64,000 nt of DNA, taken from the NCBI GenBank assembly GCA_963828255.1, contig CAWHDZ010000027.1:166526-230525 (forward strand). Reading direction: 5' to 3'. Position numbers: made by a program. Source of the DNA: an uncultured delta proteobacterium. Lineage in GTDB: Bacteria; Myxococcota; Myxococcia; Myxococcales; Anaeromyxobacteraceae. This document shows positions 57,201 through 63,200 of the stretch, piece after piece; within the stretch, counting starts at the first letter, position 1, and each line of letters begins with the position of its first letter.

Positions 57201-60200
57201 AGGATGTTGGGGTCGTCCTCGACGACCAGGATCCGCTCGCCGCTCATGGCCTGCGCGCCTCCGAAACGGGGAGCAGCACCGTGAAGGCCGCCCCCTTGCC
57301 CAGATCGCTCTTCACGCCGACCTTTCCACCGTGGGCCTGCACCACGTGCTTCACCATCGAGAGTCCGAGGCCGCTCCCCTCGATGGTGCGCTCGAGCGGG
57401 TCCTTGCCCCGGTAGAACTTGTCGAAGATGCGCTTCTGGTCGGCGCCGGGGATGCCCGGTCCGTTGTCCGCCACCACGATCGCCACCGCGTTCCCCGAGG
57501 CCTCGGCCGAGATGGAGATGCGCTTGTCGTCGCCGGTGTACTTGAAGGCGTTCTGGAGCAGATCGACGAGGGAGTCGGCCAGCGCGTCGCGATCGGCATA
57601 GACCTGGGGCAGCCCCTCGGGGATGTCGCGCCGCACCACGGCCCCGGTCTGGATGCGCTGCGGCTCCACGGCGCGGAGCGCGTCGTCCACGATGGGGCCG
57701 AGCGGCTGGCGGCGGAAGTCGTAGCTGCGCTTGCCCGACTCCATGCGCGCCCAGTCGAGGAGCCGGGCGATGAGCACCGAGAGGCGCTGGGTCTCGGCCG
57801 AGATGATCTCGAGCGCCTCCTTCTCCTGGGCCGGGTCGGCGATGCGGCCGAGCTGCAGGGTCTCGACGAACATGCGGATGCTGGTCAGCGGCGTGCGCAG
57901 GTCGTGGGAGACCTTGTTCACGAAGTCGGTCTGCAGCCGCGAGACGTAGGCCTCCCGGTAGAGGACGACCAGCGTCCCGATGGTGCCGATGATGGTGGTG
58001 GCGACCAGCGCCAGGATGAGGGTGCCGAAGACGTAGTCCTGCTTCTGGCGCCCGAAGACCAGCATGAGGATGCCCACCGTGAGCATCATGGCCGCGGGAA
58101 CGACCACGAGGCCGATGATGAGCGGGTAGACGCGCCGGAGCTTCACGGGGTGATTGTAGACGAAGAGCCCGCCGCCTTCCGGCGACGGGCCCCTTTTGCT
58201 TCCGGTGGTCCCCCGGACGGATCCGGGGGCCCGCTGGTGTCAGGCTACTGGGCCCTGAGGGCCGGGGGCGCCTGGTTGCCGTTCAGCGCGTCGATCTGGG
58301 CCTGGGTCATGCCCGTGCCGCCGCCGAAGCCGCGCATGTGGGCGATCGACGGACCCTGCGTGTGGCAGGAGCCGCAGGTGGCGAACCACGGCGTGGTGCG
58401 GAGGTTGTTGGCCGGATTGGCCGGGTCGATCATGGTGGAGGTACCGTTCGAGCCCGCCATCGGCATGAAGTAGGCCGTCGGCGAGTCGACGTGGCAGGCC
58501 TGGCAGTAGGCACCCGGAGCCGGGTAGCTCGCGCCCTCCTCGCCGTTGAGCCACATCTTCCCGTTGTGGATCTCGTGGACCATGACCTTGAAGTCCACCG
58601 TATCCTCGACCGGACCGGCCGGAACGCCGGTGACCGGGTCGGGGCGGAACCAGTCGGGCCAGGTCGCCTCGGTGTTGTGGCAGGTGGCGCACAGCTCCAC
58701 GCTGCCCTGACGGGACCCGCCGTGGAGGCTGAGGTTGCCGTGGCAGGCGTTGCACTTCGCGATGCTGACGAACGCGGTGGCCTTGACGGAAGCCGCGGCC
58801 GCGCCGGTGCTGGTGTTGGTGAGGTTCGACGAGTAGTACCCCACCGCGGCGTTCAGGGGGATGCGCAGGGCCGGGGTCACGTTGGGCTTCACGGCGCGGC
58901 CGTAGACCGCCACCGTGATGGGCACGACGCCGATGGCCGGCAACGCCACCTTGGAGGTGACCTTGAAGGTGCCGGGGGCGACCTCCTCGACCGAGCCCGT
59001 GTTCACGTTTCCGGTGGTGGTGAGCGCGTTCAGCGGGAAGACGCGGCCATCGATCGGAAGGCCCGAGGTCGGGTCGACCACGCCGGTGTTGGTGTAGGGT
59101 CCGGTCCTCCAGCCGATGCCGACCGTGAGGCTGCCGACCGGCACGCCGGTGGTCGTGTTGACCCAGTAGGGGCTGGTCTTGATGTTCGAGTTGGCTGCGT
59201 TCAGCACCCGGAAGGTCACCACCGGGAACTGGCCCGCGCCGGTGCTCGCCACGGAGACGATCGCGAAGGCAGGCTGCGCGCCGTCCACCGCGGTGCCGGT
59301 GTTCCAGAGGGCCGCCTCGACCTTGGCCGGGATGGCGTGCTGCGACAGGACGCTGGCCTCCGTGTGGCAGGTCGTGCAGAGCGAGGTCACCGTGACGGCG
59401 AACGATTCGTGGGACGTCCCGGCGGCAGCGTTGGGGGAGAACTTCACGTTCTCGTGGCAGCCCTTGCAGGCCTCGACGCCCGGCATGGTGGCGCCGAAGA
59501 TGCTCTGGTTGCCCTGGTGGCAGGTCTCGCAGTTGCGGACGTCCTGCGGGTAGGTGAACTGATGCTCGACGCCACGGACCGAGTAGTTGAGGTTCATCTG
59601 CCTGGCGGCGTGGATGCCGTGGACCATGAGCGAGAAGTTGACGCTGCTCGGCGGACCGACGGTGTTCGACCGGAAGGCCTGGTCGGTGTGGCAGGTGGCG
59701 CAGTACTGCGCCTCGACGCGGCGGCCGTGGACCGCGAGCTTGCCGTGGCAGGCGTTGCAGGCCGCGGTGGTGACGATCTCACGATCGTTGGCGGTGGGCG
59801 TCACGAAGCCGGGGCTGACAAGGTTCGTGGTGCCATTCGCCATGAGCGTGACGGGGGCGCCGCCCTGCGGATTCGGAACGGTGAAGCCGCTTCCGAGCTG
59901 GATGCCGATCTGGAGCTGCTCCGTGGAGGTTGCGTAGTCCCAGGCGCTCTTCAGGATGGGGCGGACTCCGAAGGTGCAGGTGTACACGCCGGTCGCGCCG
60001 GCCACCGGAGTGGCCGAGCAGTTCGACGAGCTCGGGTTGGCGCCATTCAGGATCACGGAGGTGAGCTGGTAGTTGTCCGGGGCGTTGGGGCTCAGGACGT
60101 ACTTCACGGCGGTCATCGCGAACATGGCGGCGGCCGGCGTGCCGGTCGGAACCACGGGAGCCCCGGTACCGTCCCTCAGGGTGAAGGTCACGGTCGGGAC

Positions 60201-63200
60201 GCTGGCGTCACCCGTCGCGGTGGTCACGTCAGACCAGGAGAGGGAGTCGATCGTGATCGAGCCCTTGTAGATGGCGGCCGTCTGGGCCGAGTTGTGGAAG
60301 GTGTTCTGGTTCACGAGGCCGGCGGCGGGGGAGGTCACCGTCGTGTCCTGGTTGTGGCAGAGGAAGCAGCTCTCGGCCGTCACGGCGAGCGGACCGGTGG
60401 GGCCGGTGGCGCCCGTCGCGCCGGTGGCGCCGGTCGCGCCCGTGGCACCCGTCGCGCCGGTTGCGCCTGCGGGGCCGGTGGGGCCGGTCGCGCCTGCGGG
60501 GCCGGTCTCGCCCTGCGGACCGGTGTCGCCCGAACAGGCCGTCAGGCCGAGGCCTGCCGCGACCAGCACGGAAAGTGTCATGAGCTTCGACGTTCGCATT
60601 TGCGCTCCCTGGGCCGGCAGACGGGTTCGTCCGCGGGTTGGCGTCGCGGCATCTTATCGGAGTTGGTGGCCTCGGGTCTTTCGATTGATCGCGTCAACGG
60701 CGGGCAAGCGAAGGGCCCACCGCCTTTCGGCGACGGGCCCTCTTTTCTTCACGGGCCCCGGGGACGGATCCCCGGGGCCTCGGGTTTCAGGCTACTGGGC
60801 CCTGAGGGCCGGGGGCGCCTGGTTGCCGTTCAGCGCGTCGATCTGGGCCTGGGTCATGCCCGTGCCGCCGCCGAAGCCGCGCATGTGGGCGATCGACGGA
60901 CCCTGCGTGTGGCAGGAGCCGCAGGTGGCGAACCACGGCGTGGTGCGGAGGTTGTTGGCCGGATTGGCCGGGTCGATCTTGGTCGAGGTCCCGCTCGAGC
61001 CCGCCATCGGCATGAAGTATGCCGAGGGGGAGTCGACGTGGCAGGCCTGGCAGTAGGCACCCGGGGCCGGGTAGCTCGCGCCCTCCTCGCCGTTGAGCCA
61101 CATCTTGCCGTTGTGGATCTCGTGGACCATGACCTTGAAGTCCACCGTGCCCTCGACCGGACCGGCCGGCACCCCGGTGATCGGATCGGGGCGGAACCAG
61201 TCGGGCCAGGTCGCCTCGGTGTTGTGGCACGTGGCGCACAGCTCCACGCTGCCCTGCCGGGACCCGCCGTGGAGGCTGAGGTTCTTGTGGCAGTTGTTGC
61301 ACTTCGCGATGCTGACGAACGCGGTGGCCTTGACGGAAGCCGCGGCCGCGCCGGTGCTGGTGTTGGTGAGGTTCGACGAGTAGTACCCCACCGCGGCGTT
61401 CAGGGGGATGCGCAGGGTCGGGGTCACGCCGGGCTTCACGGCGCGGCCGTAGACCGCCACGGTGATGGGCACGACGCCGATGGCCGGCAACGCCACCTTG
61501 GAGGTGACCTTGAAGGTGCCGGGGGCGACCTCCTCGACCGAGCCCGTGTTCACGTTTCCGGTGGTGGTGAGCGCGTTCAGCGGGAAGACGCGGCCATCGT
61601 TCGGAAGGCCCGAGGTCGGGTCGACCACGCCGGTGTTGGTGTAGGGTCCGGTCCTCCAGCCGATGCCGACCGTGAGGCTACCGACCGGCGCGCCGGTGGT
61701 CGTGTTGACCCAGTAGGGGCTGGTCTTGATGTTGGAGTTGGTTGGGTTCAGCACCCGGAAGGTCACCACCGGGAACTGGCCCGCGCCGGTGCTCGCGACG
61801 GAGACGATCGCGAAGGCAGGCTGCGCGCCGTCCACCGCGGTGCCGGTGTTCCAGAGGGCCGCCTCGACCTCGGCCGGGATGGCGTGGTTCTGCAGATCGC
61901 ATCCTGGGTGTGGCAGAGTGACGCAGTTGGCGGTCGGGAGGACCGTGATGCGAGCGCCCCACCCGGGTGGGCGTTCGTGCCGAACCCGGTGTTCTCGTGA
62001 CAACCCGTACAGGCCTCGACGCCCGGCATGCTGGCGCCGAAGATGCCCTGGTTGCCCTGGTGGCAGGTCTCGCAGTTGCGGACGTCCTGCGGGTAGGTGA
62101 ACTGATGCTCGACGCCACGGACCGAGTAGTTGAGGTTCATCTGCCTGGCGGCGTGGATGCCGTGGACCATGAGCGAGAAGTTGACGCTGCTCGGCGGACC
62201 GACGGTGTTCGACCGGAAGGCCTGGTCGGTGTGGCAGGTGGCGCAGTACTGCGCCTCGACGCGGCGGCCGTGGACCGCGAGCTTGCCGTGGCAGGCGTTG
62301 CAGGCCGCGGTGGTGACGATCTCACGATCGTTGGCGGTGGGCGTCACGAAGCCGGGGCTGACGAGGTTCGTGGTGCCATTCGCCATGAGCGTGACGGGGG
62401 CGCCGCCCTGCGGATTCGGAACGGTGAAGCCGCTTCCGAGCTGGATGCCGATCTGGAGCTGCTCCGTGGAGGTTGCGTAGGTCCCAGGCGCTCTTCGGGA
62501 TGGGGCGGACTCCGAAGGTGCAGGTGTACACGCCGGTCGCGCCCCACCGGAGTGGCCGAGCAGTTCGACGAGCTCGGGTTGGCGCCATTCAGGATCACGG
62601 AGGTGAGCTGGTAGTTGTCCGGGGCGTTGGGGCTCAGGACGTACTTCACGGCGGTCATCGCGAACATGGCGGCGGCCGGCTGCCGGTCGGAACCACGGGA
62701 GCCCCGGTCCGTCCCTCAGGGTGAAGGTCACGGTCGGGACCTGGCGTCACCCGTCGCGGTGGTCACGTCAGACCAGGAGAGGGAGTCGATCGTGATCGAG
62801 CCCTTGTAGATGGCGGCCGTCTGGGCCGAGTTGTGGAAGGTGTTCTGGTTCACGAGGCCGCGGGGAGGTCACCGTCGTGTCCTGGTTGTGGCAGAGGAAG
62901 CAGCTCTCGGCCGTCACGGCGAGCGGACCGGTGGGGCCGGTGGCGCCCGTCGCGCCGGTCGCGCCCGTGGCACCCGTCGCGCCGGTTGCGCCTGCGGGGC
63001 CGGTGGGGCCGGTCGCGCCTGCGGGGCCGGTGGCCGTCGCCCTGCGGACCGGTGTCGCCCGAACAGGCCGTCAGGCCGAGGCCTGCCGCGACCAGCACGG
63101 AAAGTGTCATGAGCTTCGACGTTCGCATTTGTACTGCCTCCTTGGACTGACTGGACTTCGGATGAGGATCGAGCCCGTCGCTCGCTTCACTGAGGGATGA

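Follow-up and report, generated by a model that had tools for sequence, protein, structure and literature searches.

In the 64 000-nucleotide window that was analysed, from an Anaeromyxobacteraceae-like bacterium, a minus-strand gene (copy A) encodes what is, by sequence and structural model, a lipid-anchored decahaem cytochrome with the MtrC fold and ten haem motifs. Haem 10 of MtrC has very probably been moved to its N-terminus, next to a tether of 16 Gly-X-Y triplets. The protein could well be a surface decahaem terminal reductase on a lipid-nucleated, dynamic triple-helix tether, a statement that, as a whole, is put forward tentatively. The 784-aa open reading frame with its lipobox and the unbroken run of triplets, both reported in the genome-wide survey's note, were recovered as described. 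The features of copy A are as follows.

58245..60599, minus strand: copy A, gene of a 784-aa OmcA/MtrC-family decahaem lipoprotein, very probably circularly permuted (open reading frame, motif and profile matches)
60534..60599, minus strand: signal peptide and lipobox L-T-A-C22, the lipid Cys being Cys22 (sequence)
60387..60530, minus strand: (Gly-X-Y)16, residues 24-71, starting at Cys+2 (sequence, Pfam, trimer model)
60270..60386, minus strand: probable relocated haem-10 segment, residues 72-110 (profile comparison)
59784..60269, minus strand: beta-barrel domain I, about residues 111-272, with the Cys194/Cys208 pair, CX13C (sequence and model)
59304..59783, minus strand: pentahaem domain II, about residues 273-432 (sequence, Pfam, model)
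58785..59303, minus strand: beta-barrel domain III, about residues 433-605, cysteine-free (sequence and model)
58245..58784, minus strand: domain IV, with four CxxCH and His754 kept; the chain stops short of the MtrC haem 10 position

Copy A scored 300.7 bits with TIGR03507 (cut-off 209.3), which places it in the OmcA/MtrC decahaem family. Pfam Collagen was matched at residues 24-70 (E 2.9e-8) and Mtrc-MtrF_II-IV in two stretches (E 5.2e-47), in agreement with the domains listed in the note. When the single protein was searched against the PDB with phmmer, only repeat matches were obtained; a profile was needed for cytochrome matches. The monomer model (pLDDT 69.7, pTM 0.71) had a four-domain fold with two beta-barrels and two multihaem domains. 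Foldseek matched this model to MtrC with an E of 4.6e-21. With VIA, model residues 111-773 were placed on MtrC 47-650 (Z 17.9, rmsd 5.4, 544 aligned), and the next unrelated fold reached only Z 6.8. The distal His ligands were conserved (H102, H291, H327, H330, H397, H626, H675, H678 and H754). A second structure prediction (residues 73-784, 7 sequences) had a pLDDT of 40.8 and was left out of the results.

Copy A has the lipid anchor and the ten haem motifs in common with Shewanella MtrC, MtrF, OmcA and UndA (TIGR03507; PDB 4LM8, 6QYC, 6R2Q, 3PMQ, 4LMH, 3UCP), as well as the beta-barrel/multihaem/beta-barrel/multihaem fold of the MtrC/OmcA group. It differs from this group in the N-terminal position of haem 10, in its low identity (16-20%) and in a CX13C pair in domain I instead of CX8-15C in domain III. 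The CX8-15C disulfide of domain III was described for Shewanella members (PMC4486940). No Cys was found between residues 411 and 616 of copy A; its domain III, being cysteine-free, therefore lacks that disulfide.

The ten CxxCH motifs lie at residues 78, then 281, 300, 357, 378 and 408, then 616, 637, 699 and 742. Copy A was classed as a permuted variant because this order is 1+5+4 and not the canonical 5+5. The note's 'complete OmcA/MtrC-type' cytochrome thus stood for the number of motifs and the fold, but its author had missed the haem order and the permutation. The N-terminal motif begins six residues past the collagen run. In a profile alignment to PDB sequences, the C-terminal haem motif of MtrF paired with the N-terminal haem of the profile. 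Of 46 permuted proteins, 45 had N-terminal segments that scored higher with a haem-10 than with a haem-5 profile; the haem-10 profile was preferred by one of 40 internal haem-5 segments. Two flanking His were kept in all 46 permuted proteins, and E76, C78, C81, H82 and H102 (copy A numbering) were invariant in 16 of 16. Copy A's own N-terminal segment gave a weak haem-10 profile score (13.4 vs 6.2 bits), and BLAST of residues 73-110 against one canonical relative was not significant, the best match (E 0.023) falling on the haem-10 motif. Family membership and circular permutation, taken together, are held with high confidence.

Among 148 relatives, an N-terminal haem with four haems in the last block was found in 24 and the 5+5 order in 112. 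Trees were built with FastTree (84 rows) and with a quick IQ-TREE run (32 chosen rows); four of 88 rows were left out of the former (one 13-haem or non-decahaem, three partial or distant). A single origin of the permutation was rejected on the tree of cytochrome bodies. The idea that permuted proteins need longer tethers was also rejected (median 7 triplets vs 6 in canonical proteins, p 0.48). Such a natural permutation would show that haem 10 can come from the N-terminus, swaps the haem that is tied to the membrane, and may be useful for engineering molecular wires.

In the run of copy A, eight of the 16 triplets are Gly-Ala-Thr and Pro occupies X in six; it contains six Pro, two acidic residues and neither Lys nor Arg. 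A six-frame scan of the genome found seven runs of at least eight triplets. Two were Pro/Thr-rich and both lay at the cytochrome locus, so the run is not the only one of its kind, as had been claimed: the second belongs to a tandem duplicate (copy B, listed below).

The family counts refer to 124 lipoprotein relatives gathered by a query lacking the collagen segment. Four or more triplets were present in 85 (median 6; at least 16 in 14), starting at Cys+2 in 62 of these; the other 39 used other low-complexity linkers or none. Run length was continuous, from none up to 32 triplets, and Myxococcota relatives had runs of up to 32. None of the ten complete members with a signal or anchor but no lipobox had a Gly-X-Y run. 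In 28 of 29 permuted lipoproteins the run took up the entire linker: it began at Cys+1..3 and ended 5-9 residues ahead of the haem. The register was rarely broken, an extra Gly-X-Y block adjoining three of 118 runs of at least eight triplets. Family-wide, Gly autocorrelation at lag 3 was 0.73 vs 0.30 for shuffled sequences (maximum 0.33, 200 shuffles), and no 2-, 4- or 5-residue periodicity was found in the family linkers. X and Y varied widely (96 triplet types among 887 triplets), as did the third base of the Gly codons. As far as these sequences tell, Gly at every third residue of the linker is under selection. In a collagen-enriched set, Pro occupied X in 39% and Thr occupied Y in 38%; in the set found without collagen in the query, Thr at Y was only 15%, which counts against the collagen reading, and in many members the triplets were rich in Asp, Asn or Gln and poor in Thr. 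The fusion recurs in relatives, the note's 'about 20' becoming 18 with both PF01391 and PF22113 among the 120 best listed.

In their PDB sequences, Shewanella MtrC, MtrF and OmcA carry 4-5 Gly-X-Y triplets after the lipobox (four in MtrC), Asp/Asn-rich where the 16 of copy A are Pro/Thr/Ala-rich. The motif has the same start in Shewanella MtrC, and the statement that the design is not seen in Shewanella had to be dropped. By position and periodicity, the linker of copy A belongs, as one of the longer examples, to a type of lipoprotein tether found throughout the family. No earlier report of a collagen tether on decahaem cytochromes was found in the literature searched (supplements excepted), though a brief earlier mention outside it is possible; a term check of PMC8805035 and PMC12133095 gave no mention of collagen-type repeats or permutation. 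Bacterial collagens have Pro at X and Thr at Y and do not need hydroxyproline, according to the accessible part of PMC8968730. Copy A resembles the prokaryotic collagen-like proteins Scl1/Scl2, BclA and Bucl8 in its unbroken Gly-X-Y with Pro at X and Thr at Y. It differs in its N-terminal lipid anchor, in having no charge pairs, in showing no trimerisation domain (residues 73-272) and, against the 50 and 79 triplets of Scl1/Scl2, in length; it fell far below the cut-offs of Scl and Lcl models.

A trimer model of copy A residues 22-272 scored 0.51 (best control 0.00), a mark attained by 20 of 30 solved pairs and one of 23 single chains, and one that resemblance to solved collagens can yield. 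The modelling runs had at least 64% of contacts in common and a pLDDT of at least 68. The modelled interface comprised residues 22-72 only, with Gly stacked on Gly; no confident contact and no trimerisation domain were seen in residues 73-272. In the monomer model, pLDDT was below 50 at residues 16-55 and 61-71. Collagen rises 0.286 nm per residue, and the predicted triple helix of 48 residues would measure 13.7 nm (48 x 0.286 nm), as in the note's estimate of about 14 nm. Strict Gly periodicity together with Pro at X and Thr at Y favours a real triple helix. Of the proposed stalk, a collagen-type linker modelled as a triple helix was thus retained; 'obligately trimeric' and 'rigid' are unsupported, because the run is short, half Gly-Ala-Thr and without salt bridges. 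Scl2 pieces of 75-237 residues melt at 23.5-35.6 °C and draw stability from Pro and charge pairs (PMC7824840, section 3.1); the 48 residues of copy A, below that range and without Lys or Arg, speak against a stable helix. Also against a trimer are the family median of six triplets and Shewanella MtrC, which has four and is 1 : 1 : 1 in MtrCAB. Lipidation can stabilise a collagen triple helix. The run would most likely form lipid-nucleated, marginally stable, exchangeable trimers.

The protein would be exported by type II secretion; a GspD profile match above cut-off was found in the genome, and surface location was inferred from this match and the lipobox. The Gly-X-Y run would wind into a triple helix only when the membrane holds three lipid anchors side by side, and the marginally stable trimers, homo or mixed with copy B, would exchange. 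The tether would be a boom reaching at most about 14 nm, pivoting at its anchor, and not an obligate rigid mast. The N-terminal haem would dock into domain IV and complete the staggered cross, so that the tether would join the head at what is, in MtrCAB, the membrane-distal haem. Electrons would come from other surface cytochromes or from a porin-cytochrome conduit whose genes lie elsewhere, and would go to minerals or soluble acceptors. As noted in the survey, no mtrA or mtrB is adjacent to copy A, whose neighbours are the tandem copy, a kinase and a regulator; like OmcA, it is not tied to its own porin gene. On contig C3, a porin-like gene (no Pfam or NCBIfam match for its protein) adjoins that of a 339-aa 12-haem cytochrome, and neither has a surface-cytochrome gene as a neighbour. 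This pair matches the two-gene pcc layout without surface cytochrome described for Anaeromyxobacter in the accessible part of PMC4245776, and by analogy may be the partner of the copy A protein. TIGR03509 (MtrB) matched 0/1 and 0/26 genomes, a result uninformative on absence since the control matched nowhere.

The surroundings of copy A contain the following features.

60792..63128, minus strand: copy B, tandem duplicate of the entire gene, including its leader, the N-terminal haem and about 15 Gly-X-Y triplets; frameshifted in this assembly (DNA alignment)
about 62921-63059: Gly-X-Y run of copy B (genome scan)
57244-58146, minus strand: sensor kinase, conserved downstream border of the cytochrome slot
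56552-57247, minus strand: OmpR-type response regulator, conserved downstream border of the slot
63765..64000, minus strand: 3' end of a gene truncated where the contig stops; in relatives this gene is the conserved upstream border of the slot; read as fadJ from its sequence

Copies A and B share 94.6% DNA identity over 2450 nt, and the supposed 4-haem MtrC-domain neighbour (60792-62003) is a 3' fragment of copy B. All indels of copy B fall within codons 31-416, and its frameshifts are probably sequencing or assembly error. Copy B was not accepted as an assembly duplicate of copy A: it differs by 74 substitutions, has a segment of its own near haems 4-5 and separate upstream DNA, and B-type sequence occurs on contigs of other sequencing runs. 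The leader DNA of copy A is 92-99% identical over 72 nt to genes whose bodies share only 22-27%, a pattern found in six of eight genes compared. In a genome whose flank is 96.4% identical over 6.9 kb, the slot is occupied by another cytochrome, of the canonical type, and close relatives at the same slot have 13-20 triplets. From these alignments, recombination at the locus has joined very different cytochrome bodies to a single conserved leader.

Other explanations of the run were weighed. It is possible, if doubtful, that the protein is monomeric like MtrC and its run a single-chain leash, flexible or of polyproline-II type, serving as an extended spacer that slippage of 9-bp units has lengthened; such a leash would let the head reach beyond the LPS and move to and fro between conduit and mineral. 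The continuous lengths, the relatives with other linkers or none, the short Shewanella runs, the 1 : 1 : 1 MtrCAB and soluble MtrC described as monomeric fit this explanation, as do the lack of confident head contact in the trimer model and the low monomer pLDDT of the run. Electron transfer needs haem contact (8 Å in MtrCAB), which a mobile leash permits. The identical linker type also occurs on unrelated, non-cytochrome lipoproteins; one alkaline phosphatase lipoprotein has 24 triplets in the same place, and alkaline phosphatases are usually dimeric, a further point against the trimer. A leash, however, does not require Gly at every third residue, and X, Y and the Gly third codon base vary while the register is almost never broken and no other periodicity appears. 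An obligate, rigid 14-nm collagen stalk keeping three heads off the membrane would suit the unbroken run, its collagen-like composition and the trimer score, the latter with its possible bias towards solved collagens, and three heads attached through the tip haem could splay apart. It is nevertheless decidedly unlikely, given the lack of a trimerisation domain in the modelled span, the low predicted stability and the variable run length at the slot; a haem-free mast of 14 nm would moreover separate the heads from the outer-membrane conduit.

Very improbable is a mainly chemical or genetic role of the run, as a Thr-rich glycosylation or mineral-binding patch, a surface-lipoprotein sorting signal or a recombination tract. 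Geobacter PgcA is an extracellular cytochrome that, like copy A, has a lipid anchor and Pro/Thr tripeptide repeats; those of PgcA were proposed to bind oxides. According to the accessible part of the same source (PMC5732950), its PTx repeats lie between three haems, Gly periodicity is undescribed and CD showed no special structure; its head is unrelated. The shared leader and the canonical cytochrome in the slot would suit a recombination tract, but recombination leaves Gly conservation unexplained. A Thr-rich patch is at odds with the many Asp-, Asn- or Gln-rich members, and MtrF minus residues 22-182 was still secreted (PMC6929479, accessible part).

Structural studies of extracellular electron-transfer cytochromes have mostly removed or failed to resolve the segment from anchor to first domain, which bears on how these proteins are spaced from the membrane and grouped. 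That lipid-nucleated collagen helices are an unrecognised general means of grouping surface cytochromes in threes is rather unlikely. If true, any three lipoproteins with such a leader could form homo- or heterotrimers, from Shewanella to Myxococcota. This would explain both the 1 : 2 MtrC:OmcA complex of lipidated proteins (Shi 2006, as cited in the accessible part of PMC3279761) and why no stable MtrCAB-OmcA complex was observed (PMC12304082), and the 1 : 2 puzzle would become testable by a few Gly substitutions in Shewanella. At the helix end of the permuted protein, three haem-10 groups would meet and serve as an electron junction, and exchanged cytochrome bodies would be mixed at the locus behind a common leader. 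Should the long runs form triple helices, the reach and clustering of terminal reductases would be set by a collagen in many iron-reducing bacteria of soil and sediment. The value of copy A alone is tempered, since the design is widespread and the trimer a prediction.

RNA contigs of one riverine run covered parts of both copies; because the holders were gene-selected and the contigs may stem from DNA, they were not counted as evidence of expression. Sequencing runs with a share below 0.2 were excluded from habitat use. Rfam gave no match in the window. A consensus scan of 57800-64000 found neither a sigma-70 promoter nor an excess of terminators, and missed the first of two hairpins.

58163..58194, minus strand: 14-bp GC-rich hairpin after copy A, terminator-like, with no U tract
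60711..60742, minus strand: matching 14-bp hairpin after copy B

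A protein of 784 aa is encoded by the open reading frame at 58245-60599 (minus strand). It has a lipobox that closes with Cys22, sixteen Gly-X-Y triplets without a break over residues 24-71, and ten CxxCH motifs, all as the genome-wide survey's note had described. Pfam placed Collagen at residues 24-70 (E 2.9e-8) and also found Mtrc-MtrF_II-IV (E 5.2e-47), and TIGR03507 scored 300.7 bits (cut-off 209.3). The predicted structure (pLDDT 69.7, pTM 0.71) resembles MtrC, MtrF, OmcA and UndA (Foldseek E 4.6e-21). In the VIA fit, residues 111-773 gave Z 17.9 (rmsd 5.4, 544 aligned); the top unrelated fold gave Z 6.8. 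Close relatives bearing names are from Anaeromyxobacteraceae, so the host probably belongs to this family too. A Cys194/Cys208 pair lies in domain I; unlike the Shewanella proteins described in passages of PMC4486940, the query has no disulfide in domain III. The motif count, family model and fold agree with the earlier description of a complete OmcA/MtrC-type decahaem cytochrome; the motif order does not.

Instead of the canonical 5+5, the haem motifs are ordered 1+5+4, the first lying six residues past the collagen run. Judged by motif order and profile scores, the query head is a circularly permuted MtrC type whose haem-10 segment has moved to the N-terminus. A profile search matched the C-terminal haem motif of MtrF to the N-terminal haem position of the query family, and the query chain ends at the point where MtrF and MtrC continue to haem 10. 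Against profiles of haem 10 and haem 5 drawn from 163 canonical proteins, the N-terminal segment gave its better score as haem 10 in 45 of the 46 permuted proteins, and the internal haem 5 did so in only 1 of 40; scores for the query segment itself were modest (13.4 vs 6.2 bits). Both the His that follows the N-terminal haem and the one that follows the last haem are retained in all 46 permuted proteins, as expected if the N-terminal segment docks into domain IV, which we infer. Haem 10 of MtrCAB is distal, about 90 Å above the bilayer core, and MtrA passes electrons to haem 5 at 8 Å (parts of PMC7198977); the query tether would thus attach to the head at what is, in MtrCAB, its membrane-distal end.

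The best 150 matches of a collagen-free profile include 148 relatives with at least nine motifs. The 5+5 order holds in 112 of these, and 24 combine a single N-terminal haem with a last block of four. On shared-body trees the permuted label needs six changes (FastTree, 84 rows; IQ-TREE, 32 chosen rows) and a single clade for the permuted proteins was rejected (p-AU 4.8e-6), so either the order switched on at least two occasions, going one way or both, or there was recombination of bodies. Three relatives (P0146, P0169 and P0025) have an N-terminal haem and further motifs at the C-terminus, in a 1+5+5 order or a 13-haem form. P0146 and P0169 are not clear permutation intermediates, the last motif being atypical in both.

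The Gly-X-Y linker is, at the level of sequence, common to the whole OmcA/MtrC family. A census was made on matches of a profile without the repeat. Of 124 complete proteins with a lipobox, 85 have at least 4 triplets, 48 at least 8 and 14 at least 16 (median 6), and the run begins at Cys+2 in 62 of the 85. The conserved collagen-cytochrome fusion reported earlier was found again with no collagen in the query. The other 39 have fewer than 4 triplets, with poly-Gly, Pro-rich or Ser/Thr-rich linkers. A further 24 relatives scored as lacking a lipobox are mostly partial or mis-scored; on our reading, the 10 complete ones, which have another signal or anchor, lack a run. The design had been thought absent from Shewanella, but PDB sequences of S. 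oneidensis MtrC, S. baltica MtrC and MtrF carry 4 triplets just past the lipobox, and that of OmcA carries 5, as far as the alignments extend. In the query's own genome, only this gene among 117 candidate lipoproteins checked has more than 3 triplets. Relatives also pair a lipobox and a long run with unrelated heads, including DUF7151 proteins. At locus L084 (1168-3090, plus strand), a lipoprotein carries 24 triplets and, behind them, an alkaline phosphatase domain (E 8e-65); this enzyme is generally regarded as dimeric. Locus L058, which lies with other multihaem genes on a contig labelled Bathyarchaeia, perhaps through transfer or mis-binning, encodes an OmcA/MtrC-type decahaem protein; it has a lipobox-like Cys but lacks Gly-X-Y.

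Full-text literature searches (main texts) returned no paper on collagen-type linkers in OmcA/MtrC cytochromes, as in the survey, and none on a permuted MtrC. PgcA has Pro-Thr-x repeats, and collagen is named only in passing in passages of PMC5732950. The linker, undescribed yet widespread, sits here on a permuted representative of a well-known family.

We tentatively read the run, at a little short of even confidence, as a lipid-nucleated, exchangeable collagen triple helix. Gly autocorrelation at lags 3, 6 and 9 is 0.73, 0.68 and 0.64 (0.30 when shuffled). The run spans the entire linker in 28 of 29 permuted lipoproteins, a set assembled partly with collagen in the query. The same set has 96 triplet types at X/Y, with Pro at 39% of X and Thr at 38% of Y, near the usage of bacterial collagens (excerpts of PMC8968730); a collagen-free set gave 33% and 15%. 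Modelled in three copies, residues 22-272 gave a score of 0.51, and the highest control 0.00. The mark was attained for 20 of 30 solved pairs and for 1 of 23 single chains; both counts are rough for three copies with the alignment used. Runs agreed in at least 64% of contacts with pLDDT of at least 68, and the confident interface is confined to residues 22-72. Because collagen helices have been solved many times, this score shows likeness, not binding. The run start is fixed beside the lipid, which suggests that membrane anchors nucleate the helix; a lipid tail is reported to stabilise collagen peptides.

Against a triple helix, the run has just 48 residues, with 8 Gly-Ala-Thr, 6 Pro and no Lys or Arg, whereas the longer Scl2 pieces (75-237 residues) melt at 23.5-35.6 °C owing to Pro and charge pairs (sections of PMC7824840). 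No trimerisation domain was seen in the three-copy model of residues 22-272. The MtrCAB stoichiometry is 1:1:1 (parts of PMC5971433 and PMC3279761), and soluble MtrC is described as a monomer (in part of PMC7198977). A single-chain leash is a possibility of real though lesser weight. The obligate, rigid trimeric stalk first proposed shares the trimer model through residues 22-72, and is unlikely for so short a run without Lys or Arg; other roles are very improbable. Beyond the triple helix, such linkers might bring surface cytochromes together in threes and account for the 1:2 MtrC:OmcA complex (Kd <500 nM; Shi 2006 as cited in PMC3279761), which is doubtful given just 4-5 triplets in Shewanella.

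After lipidation at Cys22 and type II secretion, the protein would act as a surface terminal reductase. GspD is encoded in the genome, and this secretion is the known route of MtrC and OmcA (passages of PMC3279761). If helical, the linker could span up to 13.7 nm; it would let the head reach beyond LPS and return to a conduit. There is no porin gene beside the query, in line with the MtrAB-type neighbours found missing earlier; a porin-like gene lies on another contig:

Contig C3 of the source genome (G000), 7645-10064 (locus L100): porin-like gene (467-aa protein), then 12-haem cytochrome gene (339 aa)

The 467-aa protein scored 0.98 to an Atlas 'porin family protein' cluster and has no Pfam or NCBIfam match. 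The layout matches that of the Anaeromyxobacter pcc clusters described in part of PMC4245776, where a surface cytochrome is missing. The cytochrome frame was found again on contig C2, among several duplicated stretches (assembly contamination 6.6%). The window also holds, at 2264-22309 (minus strand), a large multihaem cluster (9, 6, 6, 42, 3, 15 and 25 CxxCH), which is a candidate second conduit. It includes an NHL-repeat protein, a PPIase of the parvulin type and a 724-aa protein that matches nothing in Pfam or NCBIfam; of the Atlas clusters that bear names, those nearest to the 724-aa protein are outer-membrane beta-barrels, at 0.76 (a lead only). Contig C7 (207033-244718, minus strand) encodes giant multihaem proteins (37, 45-46, 48-49 and 25 CxxCH) and cytochrome c assembly-like genes; some of its genes seem frameshifted.

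The neighbouring gene, earlier taken for a 4-haem MtrC-domain protein, is a tandem copy:

60792-63128, minus strand: copy B, 94.6% identical to the query gene over 2450 nt

It carries the leader, about 15 Gly-X-Y triplets and the N-terminal haem, so the query's run is not the only long one in the genome, contrary to what had been stated. Its indels all fall within codons 31-416, close to the contig end. Those at 61893, 61920 and 61949 are absent from contigs of all 4 public runs compared, and those at 62480 and 62543 from one; the runs come from related strains, with coverage that did not reach the indels near the collagen. Copy B is thus probably an intact paralogue.

The same kinase gene (84-97% identical) flanks one or two OmcA/MtrC-type genes in 8 same-genus regions among 20 retrieved, some permuted and others canonical. 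The first 72 nt, the leader, are 92-99% identical to the query, yet the bodies 22-27%, in 6 of 8 genes compared, and a genome 96.4% identical across 6.9 kb of flank has one canonical gene with a 20-triplet run at this slot. From these comparisons, cytochrome bodies are swapped under one shared leader. An orphan 3' fragment on contig C30 (191715-192554, minus strand; domain IV, 4 haems) belongs to another permuted-type MtrC subfamily, being 54-62% identical to the relatives P0074 and P0093. Its 5' part is absent upstream, and the fragment may be left over from cassette turnover. About 90 nt upstream of the query gene, at 60685-60697, lies an imperfect palindrome, TTGAT-N3-GTCAA, which we take to be one base off an FNR-type box.
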